Notes under the pieces: generated by a model
The model's database searches: none
What the model was told of the DNA's origin: nothing
Seen by the model: only the letters and a program-made list of their open reading frames with translations
Assembly: GCA_041389025.1 (NCBI GenBank)
Contig: JAWKSP010000003.1
Span: forward strand, 4,065 to 68,064
Reading direction: 5' to 3'
Length of the DNA stretch: 64,000 bases
From: Minisyncoccota bacterium
GTDB lineage: Bacteria > Patescibacteriota > Minisyncoccia > Phycocordibacterales > UBA918
Position numbers and translations under genes: made by a program
Shown here: one piece after another, positions 2,488 through 12,130 of the stretch
Layout of the letters: each line of letters begins with the position of its first letter
Numbering within the stretch: position 1 is the stretch's first letter

Positions 2488-4005
2488 TTAAAATTCATCT
2501 AAATACTTAATTTGAGCGCCGAGCGAAGCGAGGCGCTCTACTAGGTTTTCATAACCACGGTTGATACTGTAGATATTGCGAAGCACACTGTGTCCCTTAG
2601 CGCCAAGCATGGCGATGAGAAGGATGGTGGCCGGTCGTAAGGCTGGGGGACAGATAAGCTCGGCTGGTTTTAAGATAGTCGGACCGTTAATATAGATACG
2701 ATGTGGGTCAGCTAGTACTGTATCAGCTCCTAGTTTATCTAACTCGGTAAAATAAATAGCGCGTTTTTCGTAAACCCAGTCGTGAATCAGAGTTTGACCA
2801 GTAGCTTGGGTAGCGATAACGGCAAAGAAAGGTAGGTTATCAATATTTAAGCCAGGATATACTGCCGGATGGATTTTTTCGTGTAAGGCTACTAACTTTG
2901 ATGGTTTGGTAGTTATATCTACTAGCTTAGTGACACCATTATGGCTAAAGTAAGGTTTTGATTTTTTGTATTGGAAACCCATTTTTTCTAATTTTAGAAG
3001 CTCTAGTTCAAGAAATTCAATTGGACAACGAGTTATAGTAATGGCTGAGTTGGTTACAATGGCGGTAGCTAAGAAAAACATACTGTCAGTTGGATCTTCT
3101 GATAATGTGTATTCAATATCTTTTTTTATATTTTTAACTCCGGTTACTTTAAGAGTGGTAGTTCCAATACCTTCAATTTTGACTCCTAAAAGTTGTAGGA
3201 AACCACAAACTTCTTGCACCATGTAGTTGGCGGTAGCATACTTAATAGTGGTGGTTTCCGGCCGGCCGGCGGCGGCAAAAAGAGCGTTTTCGGTGACAGT
3301 GTCTCCTGATTCATAAAGAATTATCTCGCCGGCCGGCCGGCTTTTTGTTTCGACTTTAAAGGAGTCATCAGTGGTTTTTATATGGACACCAAAATTTTCT
3401 AAGGCGTAAAAATGAGGTTTAACCGTACGGCTGCCGAGTTTACAGCCTCCAGATTGTGGTAATGAGAAAGAGATGAGTTGGTGAATAAGTGGCCCTATGA
3501 ACATTACAATACTACGAGTGCGTTTAGCAGCTTCAACATCTATTTTTGTTAGAGAAAGTTTTTTGGGTGGAGTGATTTTAATTGAGTTGTCTTGCCATTC
3601 TACTTTTACACCAATACTTTCCAGTACTTCGATAATACGATGCACTTCTTCGATACGTGGCATACGGTGCAGGGTAGTGGTACCTTGATTTAAGAGACTG
3701 GCACAAAGTAAAGCCACAGCACCGTTTTTGGAGGTATTGGTTTCAATTTTGCCTTTTAGTTTATGTCCACCTTCTATTTCTACATTTACAGTACCAGGGG
3801 AAAGGGTGATGAGGTTTTTGCCCAATGCCTTACTAATTCGTTTTAGCATGTCAGCACTTAGGTTTTGTTTACCGCTCTCGATACGAGCGACGGCACTTTG
3901 AGTGGTGTTTAGTAATTTTGCTAAGTCGGTTTGGGTTAAACCTTTGGTTTCTCTTAGGTCGGCAATTTTGTTTCCAATATTTATCATAATGATAGAGTAT
4001 AGCAT
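2488..4005 (-). CDS. murA: UDP-N-acetylglucosamine 1-carboxyvinyltransferase (MurA) carrying an N-terminal XRE-family helix-turn-helix domain
   Basis: Residues 1-65 are a Cro/C1-type HTH (GLTQTDLAKLLNTTQSAVARIESGKQNLS). The remaining ~435 aa align end-to-end with MurA: catalytic Cys loop GGCKLGSRTVKPH and C-terminal RGYENLVERLASLGAQI. Confidence 0.85.
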   Translation of the reverse strand: MLYSIIMINIGNKIADLRETKGLTQTDLAKLLNTTQSAVARIESGKQNLSADMLKRISKALGKNLITLSPGTVNVEIEGGHKLKGKIETNTSKNGAVALLCASLLNQGTTTLHRMPRIEEVHRIIEVLESIGVKVEWQDNSIKITPPKKLSLTKIDVEAAKRTRSIVMFIGPLIHQLISFSLPQSGGCKLGSRTVKPHFYALENFGVHIKTTDDSFKVETKSRPAGEIILYESGDTVTENALFAAAGRPETTTIKYATANYMVQEVCGFLQLLGVKIEGIGTTTLKVTGVKNIKKDIEYTLSEDPTDSMFFLATAIVTNSAITITRCPIEFLELELLKLEKMGFQYKKSKPYFSHNGVTKLVDITTKPSKLVALHEKIHPAVYPGLNIDNLPFFAVIATQATGQTLIHDWVYEKRAIYFTELDKLGADTVLADPHRIYINGPTILKPAELICPPALRPATILLIAMLGAKGHSVLRNIYSINRGYENLVERLASLGAQIKYLDEF

Positions 4006-4015
4006 ATATGCTATA
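3998..4015. promoter_or_regulatory. 18-bp perfect palindrome TATAGCATATATGCTATA overlapping the HTH-murA start codon. Candidate operator.
   Basis: The sequence is its own reverse complement. It sits over the ATG (4003-4005, minus strand) of a gene that itself encodes an XRE HTH domain. Confidence 0.4.
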
Positions 4016-4123
4016 CAGTGCCAAAGATAAATAGTGGATTATAGCTGACGGTAGTCTTAGTGACACCTTAATGATACTTTGTAGTTTTTGGGAAAAGGGG
4101 TACTATAGTGTATCAATATTGAC

Positions 4124-5137
4124 ATGAGTTGGAATTTTACCCCAAAAATTGGAATTGATCTTGGTACGACCAGTATTTTGGTATTTGTCCCTGGGGAAGG
4201 GGTGGTACTTAATGAACCATCGGTGGTAGCCGTATCCGATGATAATAAAGTATTAGCGGTTGGAGCAGAGGCTAAGCGTATGATTGGTCGTACTCCTGAT
4301 ACGATTAGAGCTTATAGACCAATGAAAGACGGAGTAATTGCTGATTATCGAGTGACGGAAGCGATGCTTCGTTATTTTCTTCATAAGTCTTTGGGGAAAT
4401 TTAATATTTTTAAACCAGATGTGATGGTATCGGTGCCGGCTGGGGTAACTTCGACTGAGAGACGGGCGGTGGTAGAAGCGACTATAAAAGCTGGTGCTAA
4501 AAATGCCTATGTGGTAAAAGAACCAATTTTAGCGGCAATTGGTGCCGGTATACCAATTTATGAACCACAAGGACATATGATAATAGATATCGGTGGTGGA
4601 ACTATCGATGTGGCGGTGATTTCCCTAGGTGGAATTGTGGCTTCTAATTCAGTAAAATGTGCCGGTAACCGGATTGATGTAGCAATTGTGGACTATGTAA
4701 AGAAAACTCGTAATTTATCTATTGGTGAAAAGACTGCTGAGGAGATAAAGATAAAAATCGGTTCAGCTTTACCTTTAGAGGAAGAATTGGTGATGGAAAT
4801 AAAAGGTCGTGATGTAGTATCTGGCTTGCCACGAGTAACTGAAATGCGTACTAATGAAGTGGTACGAGCGATAAATCGTGAATTAAGAGAAATGATAAAA
4901 GCGATAAAGGATGTATTTCAAGAAACACCACCAGAATTAGCTTCAGATATTATTGATGGCGGAATAATTATGACTGGAGGTACTTCACAACTAAGAAACT
5001 TTGCCGAATTAGTCAAGCGTCGTACCGGAGTAAAAGCTAAGTTGGCTGACCAAGCCTTGTTTTGTGTGGTAACCGGTACTGGTGTGGCTCTTGAACATTT
5101 AGACACGTACAAACAAACAGTATTAGCTAAAAGATAG
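4124..5137 (+). CDS. Actin-like rod-shape protein MreB paralog (Mbl-like)
   Basis: IGIDLGTTSILVF...NEPSVVAV phosphate-1 motif with the MreB/actin fold throughout. It is a second copy, distinct from the mreBCD-linked mreB at 17910. Confidence 0.85.
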   Translation: MSWNFTPKIGIDLGTTSILVFVPGEGVVLNEPSVVAVSDDNKVLAVGAEAKRMIGRTPDTIRAYRPMKDGVIADYRVTEAMLRYFLHKSLGKFNIFKPDVMVSVPAGVTSTERRAVVEATIKAGAKNAYVVKEPILAAIGAGIPIYEPQGHMIIDIGGGTIDVAVISLGGIVASNSVKCAGNRIDVAIVDYVKKTRNLSIGEKTAEEIKIKIGSALPLEEELVMEIKGRDVVSGLPRVTEMRTNEVVRAINRELREMIKAIKDVFQETPPELASDIIDGGIIMTGGTSQLRNFAELVKRRTGVKAKLADQALFCVVTGTGVALEHLDTYKQTVLAKR

Positions 5138-5187: not shown

Positions 5188-7929
5188 ATGTCTGAAGGAA
5201 TACCAAAACAATTCACTACTCCGGAGGAGGAGATAGCTTATTTGCGTGAACAAATAGCCAAACGCGAACAAGAGCTTTTAGCCAGAACACCTGAAGTCGA
5301 CCAATCTGATGTAGAAGCAGTTGGAAAACAAGAGATTAGAGAGTACGCTAGTTTTACTCCCAAAATGGTTCTAGAGAAAAATCATCAGCTGAAAGATACT
5401 GCTATTGCTATATCCGCTGAACAAGTCAGTGTCGCGTCTGATCCTGTAGAAGAAATCATGCAAGTTGCGACAGAGAAAGGAATTAAAAATGCTCTAACCG
5501 TTTTAGAAAAAATAGATAATGCTTATTTGGTCGATGAGGTACACCGTCGATTGGTTGAATATATTAAATCAGGAGTAGAGATGCAGGACTTAAAGGAGGG
5601 TACGCCAGCTTGGCATGTTCTTCACATGACTTTGTATGAAGTGACTTTGCCGGAGACAAAGTCAGTTAATGGACGTGAATATCAGTTAGCTGAGCTTATT
5701 GGTATGATGGAGCAGTTGTTTGCTGGCTTGCGAACAATTGGTTCAGAGCAATCACACAATCATTTTGCGATTGAAATTGCGGTGGCTGATAATAGCGACG
5801 ACATTGTTTTTTACGTGGCAATACCAAATAAGTTTGTAACTTTGTTTGAAAAGCAGGTTCTTTCCTTATTTCCGCATGCACAATTAATTCTCCAAGCTCA
5901 CGATTACAATATTTTTGTCGATAATGGTACTACTATTGTGTCTGAGGTTTCTCTTAAAAAACATCCGATTTATCCGGTGAAAACCCACGACAGTTTCGCT
6001 TCTGATCCCTTATCGGTGATTTTAAATGCTTTTTCAAAAATTGAACGAGAAGGTGGTGGAGCAGCGGTGCAAATATTGGTACGCTACCCGCAAAAAGAAT
6101 ACCGTAAAAGCTATGAAGGGGTCATAAAAAATATGCAAAAAGGTATGAAAGCCGGCGATGCCATTTCTCGTAGCTCACTTGGCGGTGAAATAATGGCCTC
6201 ACTGTCTGACTTTGTGTTTAGTAAATCAAACAAAGACGAAAACAAGGAAGTTGACTCAGATAAAATCCAGCTGTTCGGACAAAAAATAAAATCAGATATA
6301 GTGGAGACAAACATCCGTTTGGCGGTATCAGCTAGAGAAATTTCACGAGCAGAAGATATTTTAACCGAAATCGAATCCACTTTTCATCAATTTTCTTTGG
6401 TGGACGGCAACAGTTTTACCTTCAAGCGAGTAAGAGGAGGTTCGTTACGTCAGGCGGAACGACAATTTTCTTTTCGTGAATTTTCCAAGCATATTATCTT
6501 GCCGTTGTCTCTGACAGAGTTGTCTACCGTTATTCATTTACCTGCCAATGGCATCGCTTCTTCACCGCAGTTCAAGCAATCTCATGTAAATACCGCTCCG
6601 GCACCGACCGATATGCCGACCGAAGGTACTCTTCTTGGTATCAACACCCATCGCAATGTAGAGCGAAAAATCTTTATTACCGATGAAGATCGGGTACGAC
6701 ACTTCTATATTATCGGACAGACCGGTACCGGTAAGACATCATTGATGAAAAATATGATTGTGCAGGATATCGAGAGAGGCGATGGGGTGTGTATGATCGA
6801 CCCACACGGCACTGATATCGAGGATGTTTTAAGCGCGGTGCCGAAGGAACGTGAGCAGGATGTGATTTATTTTGATCCGTCACGACTAGATAAGATTGTC
6901 GCCTTAAACATGCTTGAGTATGACACGTCCAAGCCGGAACAAAAAACTTTTGTGGTCAATGAACTTTTTTCCATTTTCCAAAAGCTTTATGGTGGTAATC
7001 CTGAGTCAATGGGCCCAATGTTTGAGCAATATTTTAGAAATGCCACTTTACTAGTAATGGAGGATCCAGATAGTGGTAATACACTGATGGATATATCTCG
7101 GGTGATGGCTGATGCCAAGTACCGCAAAATGAAGTTGTCCAAGGCTACCAATCCGGTGGTGGTGCAATTTTGGAGTGAAATAGCTACCAAAGCCGGTGGT
7201 GAGGCTTCTCTGGAAAATATTGTGCCATATATTGTGTCTAAGTTTGATGTCTTTACCGCCAATGACTACATGCGACCGATTATCGGTCAGCAAAAATCCG
7301 CTTTCAATTTTAGACAAATAATGGACGAACGGAAGATTCTTTTGGTTAATTTATCCAAGGGTCGTTTAGGTGAAATAAATGCCAACCTTATTGGTATGAT
7401 TATTGTCGGAAAGATACTAATGGCGGCTTTGTCCCGGGTAGATGACCAAACTCGTGGCTTCCCACCTTTTTATTTGCATATGGATGAGTTTCAAAACGTA
7501 TCTACCAATTCTATTTCGGCGATTTTGTCTGAGGCTCGAAAATACAAACTCGGCCTTACAATCGCCCATCAATTTATCGCTCAGTTGGAACCGAGTATTA
7601 AAGACGCGGTGTTTGGAAACGTCGGTTCAATGGCTACTTTTCGAGTGGGAGCAGAGGATGCGCAGTTTTTAGAGTCACAATTTTCTCCGGTGTTTGGCGT
7701 AAATGACCTTATTAATATACCTAATTACAATGCGATAGTCAGGATATTAGCAAATGGTACGCCGACCAAGCCTTTTAATTTACGCACCATGCCTCCGGCA
7801 AAACTAGATCCAACCAGAGCAAATGCTCTCATTGACCTCAGTTATAGCCGATATGGACGATCAAGAGAGGAGGTGGAGGCGGAGATATCCGCTAGATATG
7901 CCAAAGAACCACCGGTTGGCTTAACTTGA
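5188..7929 (+). CDS. Large P-loop ATPase with a type IV secretion VirB4/VirD4 (TraC/TraG)-like C-terminal domain
   Basis: Walker A YIIGQTGTGKTSLMKNMI and Walker B-like HMDEFQNV. The C-terminal pattern RKYKLGLTIAHQFIAQL...VFGNVGSMATFRVG matches the T4SS ATPase family. There is no N-terminal TM segment and the N-terminal ~450 aa are unassigned. Confidence 0.55.
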   Translation: MSEGIPKQFTTPEEEIAYLREQIAKREQELLARTPEVDQSDVEAVGKQEIREYASFTPKMVLEKNHQLKDTAIAISAEQVSVASDPVEEIMQVATEKGIKNALTVLEKIDNAYLVDEVHRRLVEYIKSGVEMQDLKEGTPAWHVLHMTLYEVTLPETKSVNGREYQLAELIGMMEQLFAGLRTIGSEQSHNHFAIEIAVADNSDDIVFYVAIPNKFVTLFEKQVLSLFPHAQLILQAHDYNIFVDNGTTIVSEVSLKKHPIYPVKTHDSFASDPLSVILNAFSKIEREGGGAAVQILVRYPQKEYRKSYEGVIKNMQKGMKAGDAISRSSLGGEIMASLSDFVFSKSNKDENKEVDSDKIQLFGQKIKSDIVETNIRLAVSAREISRAEDILTEIESTFHQFSLVDGNSFTFKRVRGGSLRQAERQFSFREFSKHIILPLSLTELSTVIHLPANGIASSPQFKQSHVNTAPAPTDMPTEGTLLGINTHRNVERKIFITDEDRVRHFYIIGQTGTGKTSLMKNMIVQDIERGDGVCMIDPHGTDIEDVLSAVPKEREQDVIYFDPSRLDKIVALNMLEYDTSKPEQKTFVVNELFSIFQKLYGGNPESMGPMFEQYFRNATLLVMEDPDSGNTLMDISRVMADAKYRKMKLSKATNPVVVQFWSEIATKAGGEASLENIVPYIVSKFDVFTANDYMRPIIGQQKSAFNFRQIMDERKILLVNLSKGRLGEINANLIGMIIVGKILMAALSRVDDQTRGFPPFYLHMDEFQNVSTNSISAILSEARKYKLGLTIAHQFIAQLEPSIKDAVFGNVGSMATFRVGAEDAQFLESQFSPVFGVNDLINIPNYNAIVRILANGTPTKPFNLRTMPPAKLDPTRANALIDLSYSRYGRSREEVEAEISARYAKEPPVGLT

Positions 7930-7957: not shown

Positions 7958-10900
7958 ATGAGTATGGAGAAATTTGGAGATAATAAAGGAAATAGATCGG
8001 ATGAAATTGTGAATGCTGAAATTATTTCAGAAGGTAGTGGACCAATTGGTTCTGGTGAGAGAAATGTTGTAAATGAAAATAACAGTCAAGAGAATCCAGA
8101 TAAGACTCAAGAAGCCAGCTCAGAAAAAGAGTCAAGTCTAGAAATCGAAGCGGAGCAACTTGATGATTCGGAGCAAGAGTTTGCTGATGCAGAAGGCAGG
8201 TTTAAAGCAATAAAAGACACTGCTGAGAAACTAAAAAGTGCAGTACCAGAAATATATAGTCATTTAAATTCAGCCGATTCAGCTATCAGTGCTTTTAATA
8301 ATATCAGAGAATCTGATGAAAGAATTAGAAAAAATTATATTTCAAGGTATCTTGGTGTTTTAAACCGAGCTATAAAGTCAATCAATGAATTAATTGATGA
8401 GAATAAAGATAAACTAGAGACGCAAGGTGATCAAGATCAGAAAGAGGAAGAAAAGGTTGGGCGGAATAATGATAGAAAATCAGAAAATAGTAAAGAGAAA
8501 AGTTCTCATCAGAAAGGACTGGTGGAGGCTTATGTTAATAAGTTCAATAAAATTTTTACAAAAAAATTTGGTAATTTAGACACCTTGGATAACACTGACC
8601 GTGGAAATCCAAATGGTCTGCCTGAGTATTTGATTAATGCAATAAAGGCTTTTAAAGCAAAAGAGGCTGAGGTTAAAAAATGGATAGCAAACACTGATTC
8701 TACAACCCAAAATTCAATAGTTGGTGTACAAACTTTACAAAATTTTGTAGCCGAATTAAGGGATTTAAAACATGCTACTCATGAAGCGCATACAAGATAC
8801 ACTAGAGAGAAGCTGGGTCTAGATAATTCAAAAGAGAGTGAAGATCTTGAAGTAAAAAAATCAGAAATTATCTCAGGGTTTAGTTCAGTTGAGTCTAAGT
8901 TTGAAAAAATAGCAGGTAATGCTAAAAGTACAGTTTCAAATGAAGATTTTCAGAAACTTAAGCCCGATGCAAGACGTGTTATTGAAGCGGGTAGAAATGC
9001 TATAAAAGAATTTAATGAATTAGCCAAAACCGAACCGACTGAAGAAAACTTAAATCAGCTAGAAGGAAAAAAGAGAGAGTTAGAATCTGTGATTGCCAGT
9101 TTGGCAAAAAAAGTTGGTGAGATGGAAGGAGTAGAAAAAGATACCGATAAAAAAACAGAAGAAGCTAATGAAGCTGAAAATGAAAAAGGGGATAACGGAA
9201 AAGAAAATAATGAAGATGTAAAATCAAAAAGTGATGATACTCGCACTGAAAATAATGGTGTAGTGGTTGATGTAGAAGAAAAACCAAAAGAAGAAATAAG
9301 TGTTGAGAGTGAAGACGTGGTGGCTGATGAAGAGGTTGTTGAAGGTCTGGAGTTAGATGAGGGTGAAAAAAAAGAAGTTGGAACAAACGAAGAAAAAGAT
9401 AATAAAGAAATTTTTCAAGCTGAAAGAAAGGAATGGTATGAAGCTAGGAAAAAATATTATGAAGATAAAAATGCCTACAATGAAGCGGTAGAGAGTTTTT
9501 ATAAAAATAGAAACTGGTTTGGAAAGGTGGCAGATAGCGCTAAAAGTTTTTTTGGCTTAAAACCAAAATTGCCAGAAGGAATTACTAAACTAGAAAATGA
9601 ATTTAAAAAATCTAGAAGCTCGTACGCTCGTGGTTTGGATTCTGTTTTGAAGAAACGGGCTATAGAAAAAAATACAAATTACGCGGGATTTGACGAAAAG
9701 GACAGTGAAGGTAATTCTACTAAAGCTTCAGACAAGATAAAACAGTTGTTTACGCGTAAGTTTGTTTTGCGTCCAAGTAAAGAAATATTGGATTTACAAA
9801 AAACTGAGATTCTAATTGAAGGACAAGTTGAGGCTGTAGGCAGGGTAATGACTAAGTTGAAAGAAAGTAAATGGTATGTACGAGGTGGAATTATAACTGG
9901 TGCGGCAATATTAGGTACAGCTAGTGGAGGTTTGTTGGCTGGAGGTTTGGCGGCGGCAACGGCTGGTTCTCGTATGGCTATTGGAGTTGGATCTGGTGTA
10001 GCTGCTGGTTGGTTGGCTGATAAAGGAATGAGTTTTAGGGTGAATAAAGCCGAAGCAACAGCTAAGGAGCTTATGGAAGGAAGTAATTTTTCAGTAGCTG
10101 ATATTGATAATTATGAAGAGGAGGTAATGCAAGCCTTACGAAAAGCCAAAGCTGCTCAGAGCCAAAGAACCGCTGCTATAGCAACCGCTGGTTTGGCTGG
10201 TGGTTTGGTTGGTGCCTACAACGCTCCTGATTCTATTGCTGGAGTTACGGATGTGACTGAAAAGGTTTCAGGTGGTTCGGGTGGTGTGGTCGGCGATGTT
10301 GTTTCTGGTGAAGAAATTACAAAAAGTATAAAAGAAGTACTGCACAAAATTGATTTAGGGGAAGATATACCTAATGACACCGCTGGTACCGAAACCGGCA
10401 TGGAGGTGGTTGATGATGCTAAAAAAGTAGTCGAAGAAAGCGTAGAACCGTTGACTAAAGAACCTGTAGAAATAATTAATAAATTAAATGTACCAATTTA
10501 TAACTTAAATGAGGTTGGGCAGTTCTATAACCACTTACATAATATTTCTATTACCGGCGCTGAAGGTTTGGAAGTGGATCAGTTGAGTCAAGTGAAGCAG
10601 TTTATACAACTTAAAGCCAACGACATCTTGTCTGGTGAACCGCACATGACGCCGCAAAAACTCGGTGCAGAATTACAGTCGTTACTGGAGAAGAAGTTTG
10701 GTGAAGAAAGTTGGTGGCAAGAGTCACCGATTGATAAGGTGGATATTGGTAATATAACCAAAGTTGGTTATGATTCTTATGTAGACGTTGACTCTTTAAA
10801 TAAAGATACCGCTCCTATAACCATAGAAACTGAAGTGGGAGAAACTGAAAATATTAGTAGCAATATTTACGAAGTGCAAGCCGGTGATAAGCTTTGGACC

Positions 10901-12130
10901 ATCATGGAAGATCAGTATGGTGATATTTTAAATAAACTACCAGAATCTGAGCATAATGAAGTTTTAGCTAAGTTGTTTAACAACGCCAAAACCAATCCGG
11001 AAATTATAGAAGCTCTGGGCTTAAAGGAAGGGGCTAACTTAGATTTGATCTATCCGGATGAAAAAATAAATATTGGTCCACTTGGTGAAGAGTTGAAAAG
11101 AATTATTGAATCAGAAGTGGATGGTCTACCAGTAAAAGGAGTCACTGGTGCGGTCAATATAGAAGCTGACGGACCAAGTGAGAAGATAGCAATTAACTTT
11201 GCTAGAGATGGAGTAGATAATCCATTTGCCACATCTGACACACTTCCAGTGGTTGAAAAAAATACCAACGGAACTGAGTTTATTGGAACAAAGGAAGAAA
11301 TAATACAGTTTGCGGTCAAAACTGGTACTCCAACTGAACTGACTTTAAGGATGAACGAGTTTGTGCAACAAACAGCCTCAGAAATATTGGCAAAAAATCC
11401 AAATATGGATGCAACTTCTTTCAAAAATGCTGTCTGGCAAGCGTTTACTAATGAATTTAAGGCTGAGCTTAATGGTAGCAACCAAATGATTCTGGCTTTT
11501 GAACCAAAGCCGGAAGTTTTTACGTCGCAAGCTACAAACAACATACCTCCACCACCACCCGGTAGTCCTGTTGGTGGAGTGCCACCAGATTTTGCTGGAC
11601 AATCTTCTGGTTCGCAAGAAATACCTCAAGGTCATGTTGAGATGACACAGGGGGTGGTTAATAATGGAATTGATATTAATAATATTAATATGGCTACTTC
11701 GGTAGAAGATTCTAACCTAAATCAAATGAGGGCTGAAATATTTGAAAAACCAGAAAACTTTGAGTCAACCGTCCTCAAATTTGCTGAAACGCACGAAGAT
11801 AATACTAGAAGTATTCTTGATTTTGGAAAGGATAGTGTTTTTGAAGTAGCTGGTGACATGAAAATAAATGACTTGGAACAAATTGTTGATCAGGGTAAGG
11901 AAGCTACTGAATCGTATTTTAACGATAACGGAGTCGATATAAAATACGAAACATTAGTTGCTTGGTTAAATGATTATGTAGATCAAGTTCGTTATGATCC
12001 GGTCAATAATCCAAATGGTTTATTGGTAACAGAAAATACTTCTTTACGTAACTTAGTGGAAAGAGACATCGTTATTTCAGCGTGGATGGAAAAACATAAT
12101 GGATCGGTAGGTAACGTTAATGTAGCTTAG
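7958..12130 (+). CDS. Giant (1390 aa) acidic coiled-coil protein with a central Gly/Ala-rich TM hairpin region, a LysM-like segment and a Pro-rich linker
   Basis: Uninterrupted ORF. E/K-rich coiled-coil N-terminal half. Hydrophobic GGIITGAAILGTASGGLLAGGLAAATAG and AAIATAGLAGGLVGAY segments. YEVQAGDKLWTIMED...IYPDEKINIG is LysM-like. PPPPPGSPVGGVPP linker. Confidence 0.7.
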   Translation: MSMEKFGDNKGNRSDEIVNAEIISEGSGPIGSGERNVVNENNSQENPDKTQEASSEKESSLEIEAEQLDDSEQEFADAEGRFKAIKDTAEKLKSAVPEIYSHLNSADSAISAFNNIRESDERIRKNYISRYLGVLNRAIKSINELIDENKDKLETQGDQDQKEEEKVGRNNDRKSENSKEKSSHQKGLVEAYVNKFNKIFTKKFGNLDTLDNTDRGNPNGLPEYLINAIKAFKAKEAEVKKWIANTDSTTQNSIVGVQTLQNFVAELRDLKHATHEAHTRYTREKLGLDNSKESEDLEVKKSEIISGFSSVESKFEKIAGNAKSTVSNEDFQKLKPDARRVIEAGRNAIKEFNELAKTEPTEENLNQLEGKKRELESVIASLAKKVGEMEGVEKDTDKKTEEANEAENEKGDNGKENNEDVKSKSDDTRTENNGVVVDVEEKPKEEISVESEDVVADEEVVEGLELDEGEKKEVGTNEEKDNKEIFQAERKEWYEARKKYYEDKNAYNEAVESFYKNRNWFGKVADSAKSFFGLKPKLPEGITKLENEFKKSRSSYARGLDSVLKKRAIEKNTNYAGFDEKDSEGNSTKASDKIKQLFTRKFVLRPSKEILDLQKTEILIEGQVEAVGRVMTKLKESKWYVRGGIITGAAILGTASGGLLAGGLAAATAGSRMAIGVGSGVAAGWLADKGMSFRVNKAEATAKELMEGSNFSVADIDNYEEEVMQALRKAKAAQSQRTAAIATAGLAGGLVGAYNAPDSIAGVTDVTEKVSGGSGGVVGDVVSGEEITKSIKEVLHKIDLGEDIPNDTAGTETGMEVVDDAKKVVEESVEPLTKEPVEIINKLNVPIYNLNEVGQFYNHLHNISITGAEGLEVDQLSQVKQFIQLKANDILSGEPHMTPQKLGAELQSLLEKKFGEESWWQESPIDKVDIGNITKVGYDSYVDVDSLNKDTAPITIETEVGETENISSNIYEVQAGDKLWTIMEDQYGDILNKLPESEHNEVLAKLFNNAKTNPEIIEALGLKEGANLDLIYPDEKINIGPLGEELKRIIESEVDGLPVKGVTGAVNIEADGPSEKIAINFARDGVDNPFATSDTLPVVEKNTNGTEFIGTKEEIIQFAVKTGTPTELTLRMNEFVQQTASEILAKNPNMDATSFKNAVWQAFTNEFKAELNGSNQMILAFEPKPEVFTSQATNNIPPPPPGSPVGGVPPDFAGQSSGSQEIPQGHVEMTQGVVNNGIDINNINMATSVEDSNLNQMRAEIFEKPENFESTVLKFAETHEDNTRSILDFGKDSVFEVAGDMKINDLEQIVDQGKEATESYFNDNGVDIKYETLVAWLNDYVDQVRYDPVNNPNGLLVTENTSLRNLVERDIVISAWMEKHNGSVGNVNVA

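Follow-up and report, generated by a model that had tools for sequence, protein, structure and literature searches.

Here, we describe a gene in a 64,000-nucleotide stretch of DNA from a Minisyncoccota bacterium (assembly GCA_041389025.1, contig JAWKSP010000003.1, positions 4,065 to 68,064; hereafter, the window) whose product joins a DNA-binding domain to an enzyme in one polypeptide chain. The gene lies on the minus strand and encodes an N-terminal XRE-type helix-turn-helix (HTH) domain followed by a complete MurA, and a perfect palindrome overlaps its predicted promoter. We assign a probability of about 0.75 to the reading that this protein, HTH-MurA, is a bifunctional MurA enzyme and autorepressor, which would have originated from the ancient fusion of a captured XRE cassette. 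MurA catalyzes the committed step of peptidoglycan synthesis and is the target of fosfomycin, and organisms of the Candidate Phyla Radiation have minimal genomes with few recognizable regulators. If the reading is true, a MurA with its own repressor domain represents a new and very compact solution to the control of this step.

The longest open reading frame (ORF) of the locus spans positions 2488..4005 on the minus strand and encodes 505 aa. Within this ORF, Pfam detects HTH_3 (PF01381) at residues 14–65 (E-value 2e-15; 56.8 bits against a cut-off of 23) and EPSP_synthase (PF00275) at residues 78–492, where the match covers profile positions 2–417 of 417 (E-value 5e-46). As argued below, the true start is ATG 3987–3985, so that the coding sequence spans 2488..3987 (minus strand) and comprises 499 codons and a stop. 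NCBI holds an exact match to the 499-aa protein (P0001), which originates from a Candidatus Paceibacterota metagenome-assembled genome.

The XRE/Cro-C1 HTH domain occupies aa 1–59 (3811..3987, minus strand) and also matches the Pfam families HTH_31 and HTH_19. Solved relatives of this domain include HigA, the 434 repressor, and C.AhdI. The recognition helix reads T28-T29-Q30-S31-A-V-A-R-I-E-S-G and is invariant across 31 relatives. Scores against the antitoxin models TIGR03070 (44 against a cut-off of 71.65) and HigA (20.7 against 47.7) stay below their thresholds, and the domain is not assigned to either. A linker that is near-invariant in sequence, GKNLITLSPG (aa 56–65; 3793..3822, minus strand), joins the HTH to MurA and may have a role in dimerization or docking.

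The remainder of the chain is a complete MurA domain with the EPSP-synthase fold (aa 66–499, 434 aa; 2491..3792, minus strand). It aligns end to end with 33 solved MurA chains, the best being 5ujs (E-value 1e-51), and the MurA subfamily model NF006873/PRK09369 of NCBIfam is matched with a score of 309.9, above its cut-off of 297. Residues K87, N88, C182, R187, D383, R451, and R477 correspond to K22, N23, C115, R120, D305, R371, and R397 of the Escherichia coli enzyme, with the catalytic Cys codon at 3442–3444 (minus strand) within a GGC-K-LGSR loop. This K/N/C/R/D/R/R pattern recurs in two alignments that overlap, in 88 of 99 and in 115 of 127 sequences, and the domain looks catalytically competent. 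An AlphaFold2 monomer model (predicted local distance difference test score, pLDDT, of 84.9) places four helices at residues 4–14, 19–26, 30–37, and 45–55, and the MurA fold from residue 66 onwards. The linker between them (56–65) is a low-confidence coil, with pLDDT values below 50 for residues 61–64. A first-pass annotation, made from the letters of the window without database searches, had described the protein as an XRE-type HTH fused to a complete MurA that retains its active-site Cys, and this description agrees with the domain and residue assignments.

The same annotation had raised two questions about the fusion, namely whether homologues in related genomes carry the HTH and whether a frameshift or sequencing error had merged a small HTH gene with murA. 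In a search of a collection of 5.8 billion proteins, both HTH and EPSP_synthase are present in all 120 best relatives. A scan of one genome per species yielded 80 loci with 57–85% identity, under labels that include Nomura-, Kaiser-, and Taylorbacteria, and the fusion is encoded in 78 of these species-representative loci across Paceibacteria; the HTH is counted as included because the match begins at query residue 1–4. When the search was seeded with a distant member, the same architecture was recovered from genomes labelled Lipton-, Colwell-, and Doudnabacteria. Furthermore, a library clustered at 50% identity contains fused representatives down to 33% identity, and the recognition helix can still be recognized in relatives of 33–40% overall identity. 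A continuous ORF is seen in hundreds of independent assemblies from NCBI, JGI, ENA, and Logan, which rules out an assembly or frameshift artefact. Judged from these sequence comparisons, the fusion is genuine and ancient, and HTH-MurA seems to be the usual form of the enzyme in much of the Candidate Phyla Radiation. Public annotations label the fused proteins simply MurA.

The position of the start codon determines how the palindrome is to be read. The longest ORF begins at an ATG inside the palindrome (4003..4005, minus strand), which is in frame with the gene, and a minority of gene callers use the equivalent upstream start (entries of 505–506 aa). Homologues are mostly called at 499 aa, matching a start at Met7 of the longest ORF (ATG 3987). 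In many related loci, in-frame stops occur 6–27 nt upstream of the Met7-equivalent ATG, and in the relatives the palindrome ATG is either out of frame or followed by in-frame stops. A promoter scan identifies an extended -10 element, TGcTATACT (3996..4004, minus strand), in which TATACT (4001–3996) follows TG and which is formed by the right arm of the palindrome. A -35-like TTGGCA (4019..4024, minus strand) is found at a spacing of 17 nt. The upstream ATG is thus located in the promoter spacer between -35 and -10, and together with the stops in relatives this leads us to reject it as the start codon. A genuine 505-aa start is, like the artefact considered above, scarcely conceivable. The first-pass annotation had centred the palindrome on the start codon, with Met7 as a possible internal start; an ATG is indeed contained in the palindrome, but it is not the functional start, and Met7 is judged to be the real one. 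Since that ATG lies between the two promoter elements, the palindrome would be a promoter element or operator and not a structure spanning the start codon.

Across 60 loci, TATGCTATAnT is conserved. The -35 TTGGCA appears by eye to be unconserved in relatives, so that the extended -10 probably dominates. The distance from the -10 element to ATG 3987 is 8 nt, and a leaderless mRNA would be expected from this short spacing. Only 6 of the 42 window ORFs of at least 150 aa are preceded by a Shine–Dalgarno-like motif, and several window ORFs show, by eye, a TAnnnT-like box a few nucleotides before their ATG. Leaderless mRNAs may be common in this genome.

Further sequence features are found around the promoter. 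The scan returned a second promoter-like site, GTGTCA-17-TATAAT (4038..4066, minus strand), which by eye is absent from the upstream regions of the relatives compared. Also by eye, the window carries about 55 nt of extra sequence (4038–4095) between the mreB promoter region and the operator in comparison with relatives, and this second site lies in it. An outer 13-nt inverted repeat (3973–3985/4026–4038, 92% complementary) brackets promoter and operator, possibly by chance; its right arm corresponds to codons 1–5 of the gene and its left arm lies in the extra intergenic sequence.

The palindrome TATAGCATATATGCTATA (3998–4015), reported in the first-pass annotation as a perfect 18-mer, is present as described and extends to a perfect 20-mer, GTATAGCATATATGCTATAC (3997..4016, unstranded), with the core ATAGC-N6-GCTAT at 3999–4014. 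We predict that it is an operator. It precedes the putative transcription start and lacks a T-tract, which bears on a reading as an RNA hairpin or terminator. Further copies had been suggested as something to look for: within the 64-kb window, the part of the genome that was searched, no other copy exists even with three mismatches (0.01 expected by chance). Likewise, ATAGC-N6-GCTAT with one arm mismatch is found nowhere else in the window, the four loose matches not being palindromic.

In the related genomes, the palindrome is tied to the fused gene. Searching 548 kb, made up of ±3 kb around the 80 related genes, for ATAGC-N6-GCTAT and variants of it with complementary 5-nt arms, we found 68 such palindromes at most 320 nt upstream of a fused gene. 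Elsewhere in the 548 kb there are eight loose matches, none with ATAGC arms. The information profile of 60 aligned loci is flat except for ATAGC..TATGCTATAnT. The right arm coincides with the extended -10, and in a few relatives the symmetry reaches TATACT on both strands (by eye), as would be the case if the palindrome were a promoter feature only, for instance a repressor-free, bidirectional murA/mreB promoter with two extended -10 elements placed back to back. However, conservation of the left arm does not extend to the last T of a -10 on the opposite strand, and mreB has its own nearer promoter-like site, a conserved TTGTAG...TACTAT (by eye). We consider a pure promoter role highly improbable, and the bidirectional variant is rejected on this asymmetric conservation and on the variable register described below.

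Two loci of the species-level set have lost the HTH. In L059 and L064, murA is still divergent to mreB and encodes a MurA of 76–77% identity, and L059 also retains the downstream 630-aa ORF, but the palindrome is gone. In a neighbour-joining tree of the MurA part, the two nest separately inside the fused clade, indicating independent losses of the HTH. The absence of the palindrome from the functional promoters of these HTH-less genes is a further point against a role in the promoter alone. The absence of the site where the HTH is absent, together with its conservation upstream of fused genes, supports the autoregulation that the first-pass annotation had suggested.

The two arms also change symmetrically, and they vary together with the recognition helix. 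ATAGC/GCTAT arms are paired with the helix TTQS in 61 loci and in the Doudnabacteria locus L206, and ATATC or ATCTC arms with the helix TSQS in 17 loci and in L201, L204, and L205.

A metagenome scan for the exact 18-mer retrieved at least 120 loci (L081–L200). Among the matches listed, HTH-murA lies downstream of the palindrome in only 25. The other sites are mostly promoters of XRE proteins of about 95 aa (helix TKQSVISRLE) or of Gp49-toxin/XRE operons, and where the source names them, these XRE and Gp49 proteins are annotated from Gottesmanbacteria and "Patescibacteria group". With a profile built on the MurA HTHs, an XRE HTH is detected no more than 1 kb downstream of the palindrome in 77 of the 120 loci, among the matches listed, compared with only two matches elsewhere in the 674 kb of these loci. 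At the XRE genes, the register of the palindrome relative to TTGACA takes two values, again among the matches listed: 35 loci have 15 nt and 9 loci have 4 nt. This suggests that its conservation reflects a binding site rather than a promoter part at a fixed position. The presence of the same 18-mer at promoters of free-standing XRE genes in other Patescibacteria makes it most likely that murA captured a ready-made, self-repressing XRE cassette of the toxin–antitoxin kind, in line with the earlier suggestion of a regulator captured as a fusion.

Two observations concern these free-standing loci. Two palindrome copies are present 33 nt apart in L160 and 1 kb apart in L158. DnaA-box-like motifs, TTATCCACA and TGTGGATAA, flank the palindrome promoters of Gp49/XRE operons on several unrelated contigs (L082, L119, L122, L171, L179, L180, and L189).

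The occurrence of an identical 18-mer at free-standing XRE genes and Gp49-XRE operons raises the question of whether the murA palindrome serves a separate, trans-acting XRE protein, for example of the antitoxin type with the same helix, the fused HTH being vestigial or used otherwise. Such proteins could bind the murA operator if co-resident. Within the window, however, there is no other HTH of this type, and the joint loss of HTH and palindrome in two independent lineages would not be expected if the site belonged to a factor acting in trans. The fused recognition helix, moreover, is kept over a wide range of divergence and covaries with the arms. We regard a trans-acting owner of the site as unlikely, although it retains some weight, and favour recognition of the palindrome by the fused domain itself.

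More distant relatives of HTH-MurA point in the same direction. A number of fused clusters (P0130, P0133, P0134, P0271-275, P0144, P0148, P0211, and P0216) keep the HTH and are devoid of the GGC catalytic loop and of the residues equivalent to R120, R371, and R397. These dead paralogues mostly keep D305 and the fold and lose residues on the Cys/phosphoenolpyruvate (PEP) side, a pattern that, speculatively, would suit a sensor of UDP-sugars. Their genomic context was analyzed at four distinct loci (L201 10001-11518; L202 10001-11536; L204 6001-7503; L205 3498-5003), leaving aside the loci of P0144, P0148, P0211, P0216, and the HTH-less P0122. All four genes are divergent to an operon of an unfused murA with murB and/or mur ligases. 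The unfused MurA has 437–450 aa and an intact catalytic loop, and the dead HTH-MurA gene is followed by ddl or a Mur ligase gene. The intergenic gap of 25–70 nt holds a palindrome of the same type (ATATCAT..ATGATAT-type), 8–10 nt before the ATG. The divergent arrangement with a palindrome in between suggests that the HTH-MurA architecture is used as a mur regulator, and the dead paralogues look like pseudoenzyme regulators of the mur cluster.

Five comparative lines, namely conservation, co-loss, covariation, recurrence with the same HTH subfamily, and the dead paralogues, lead us to infer that the fused HTH recognizes the palindrome as its cognate operator.

The divergent neighbour of HTH-murA is mreB (4124..5137, plus strand; Pfam MreB_Mbl, E-value 6e-127), and this synteny is kept in the relatives inspected, including L059 and L064. 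The HTH of RodZ, a cytoplasmic domain, binds MreB. The fused HTH could by analogy be a protein–protein module that tethers MurA to MreB, with the palindrome unrelated to it, and the conserved proximity of mreB speaks for this arrangement. Against it, the Pfam matches of the domain are HTH_3, HTH_31, and HTH_19 and do not include the RodZ-type HTH_25; there is no transmembrane segment, and MurA follows directly after the HTH. The mreB–murA synteny persists in the two HTH-less genomes, and the dead paralogues adjoin murA–murB and not mreB. A tether would also leave the conservation of the palindrome, its loss together with the HTH, and the covariation unexplained. We give this possibility very little credence. 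HTH-MurA resembles RodZ in that an XRE-like HTH is found in a context of cell-wall morphogenesis adjoining mreB, but it differs in the features just named and in a conserved operator that points to DNA binding. In most relatives, the operator is only about 10–15 nt from the conserved -35 region of mreB (by eye); this proximity means that it might also influence mreB there.

We propose the following mechanism for autorepression by HTH-MurA. A dimer would place its two HTH domains on the half-sites ATAGC and GCTAT, 11 bp apart from centre to centre, as inferred from geometry and conservation, and the linker GKNLITLSPG may aid dimerization. The bound palindrome would cover two parts of the gene's leaderless promoter, namely the spacer and the extended -10, TGcTATACT. 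Occupancy of the operator would block RNA polymerase, so that the first committed enzyme of peptidoglycan synthesis would negatively regulate its own level. More speculatively, the open or closed ligand state of MurA, set by UDP-N-acetylglucosamine, PEP, and UDP-N-acetylmuramic acid (UDP-MurNAc), might tune DNA binding. Indirect support for such tuning comes from the dead paralogues, which keep HTH, fold, and operator without the catalytic loop.

A broader view can be put forward tentatively, at somewhat less than even odds. HTH-MurA and its paralogues may represent Patescibacteria-wide one-component regulators that use the MurA fold as a sensor, forming a series from enzyme to pseudoenzyme that controls entry into peptidoglycan synthesis. 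The working enzyme would read its own ligand state and repress its own leaderless promoter, and elsewhere a duplicated, dead HTH-MurA would be the dedicated repressor of divergent murA–murB–mur ligase operons.

Several observations weigh against autorepression by a bifunctional enzyme. The MurA equivalog model TIGR01072 scores 302.7 bits, below its cut-off of 392.7, which we attribute to a divergent Patescibacteria branch. MurA is classically monomeric, and the AlphaFold2 monomer model shows no dimer interface and is uninformative on the orientation of the HTH. The covariation of helix and operator is partly confounded by phylogeny. Furthermore, the TSQS helix is found both in L202, with ATAAC arms, and in the ATATC group, and the code is therefore not one-to-one. 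The search for further operators and a second murA covered only the 64 kb of the window, where neither a second murA nor a second HTH of the same XRE type is found. Patescibacteria also have free-standing XRE proteins that use the same operator, and a trans-acting competitor encoded elsewhere in the genome is possible.

Bifunctional enzyme–repressors, or "trigger enzymes", include group II BirA, PutA, NadR, and the archaeal RbkR (PMC5397151, PMC4016012). As in these proteins, HTH-MurA would combine a DNA-binding domain and an intact-looking enzyme in one chain with an operator at its own or its pathway's promoter. As with group I and group II biotin protein ligases, relatives without the DNA-binding domain exist. 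Unlike the known cases, the enzyme is MurA, with the EPSP-synthase fold, and the DNA-binding domain is of the XRE/Cro type. So far, no target of HTH-MurA other than its own promoter has been seen, control of its binding by ligands is speculative, and catalytically dead paralogues occur as apparent regulators of separate mur operons, all of which sets it apart from those enzymes. We found no description of an HTH-MurA fusion in the searchable literature (open-access papers and bioRxiv, where absence is no proof), and the operator 16-mer is in no paper of the same body of text. As a variant of the enzyme–repressor theme, HTH-MurA is real and conserved, seems to be undescribed, and is backed by unusually strong comparative evidence.

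With autoregulating XRE proteins such as HigA, HipB, 434 repressor/Cro, and C.AhdI, HTH-MurA shares the HTH fold and a palindrome of 16–20 bp that overlaps the -10 element. The small XRE operons and the Gp49-toxin/XRE operons of Patescibacteria carry the same 18-mer and encode a closely similar helix, T-K/T-Q-S-x-I-x-R-x-E-x-G. In contrast to XRE antitoxins, HTH-MurA has no toxin partner, and its HTH is covalently joined to a 434-aa enzyme.

In other bacteria, MurA is subject to feedback inhibition by UDP-MurNAc. Its control also involves ReoM/ReoY-ClpCP proteolysis under a PASTA kinase (PMC7286690, PMC8959180), and signalling by a PASTA kinase can inhibit the enzyme directly as well (PMC12077105). 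HTH-MurA would share its control point with these mechanisms, namely how much of the first committed peptidoglycan enzyme is present or how active it is. The known mechanisms act post-translationally through separate proteins, whereas control by HTH-MurA would be transcriptional and built into the enzyme. Patescibacteria may lack the control systems known from other bacteria.

With its 60-aa domain and the 20-bp site, HTH-MurA offers a defined protein–operator pair that is amenable to tests in E. coli, for which the source organism need not be grown. Natural controls exist in the HTH-less orthologues without an operator and in the dead paralogues beside separate mur operons. If the reading holds, the system shows the recruitment of a self-repressing XRE cassette of the toxin–antitoxin type to a housekeeping enzyme.

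The murA coding region contains a perfect 14-nt GC-only inverted repeat, CCGGCCGGCCGGCG / CGCCGGCCGGCCGG, at 3258–3271 and 3327–3340, with 55 nt between the arms. Two GGCCGGCC sites, with no others in the 64 kb and 0.12 expected, fall within it in a genome of 37% GC, and its folding energy as RNA is -41 kcal/mol (z -4.5). The repeat is not conserved, any GGCCGGCC being present in 6 of the 80 related loci.

Just past the murA stop, an AT-rich hairpin (2442–2484) has an 11-bp perfect stem (2445–2455/2469–2479). It overlaps a strong promoter-like TTGACA-17-TATTAT on the minus strand, ahead of a 108-aa ORF (2109–2435) and a 631-aa ORF (106–2001). Neither ORF has a Pfam match, and the larger one contains Cys-x2-Cys motifs. 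Downstream of mreB, an ORF of 913 aa (5188–7929) has weak matches to HerA/DUF87 and TrwB-type coupling-protein ATPases, and an ORF of 1390 aa (7958–12130) has an acidic, low-complexity N-terminal part.

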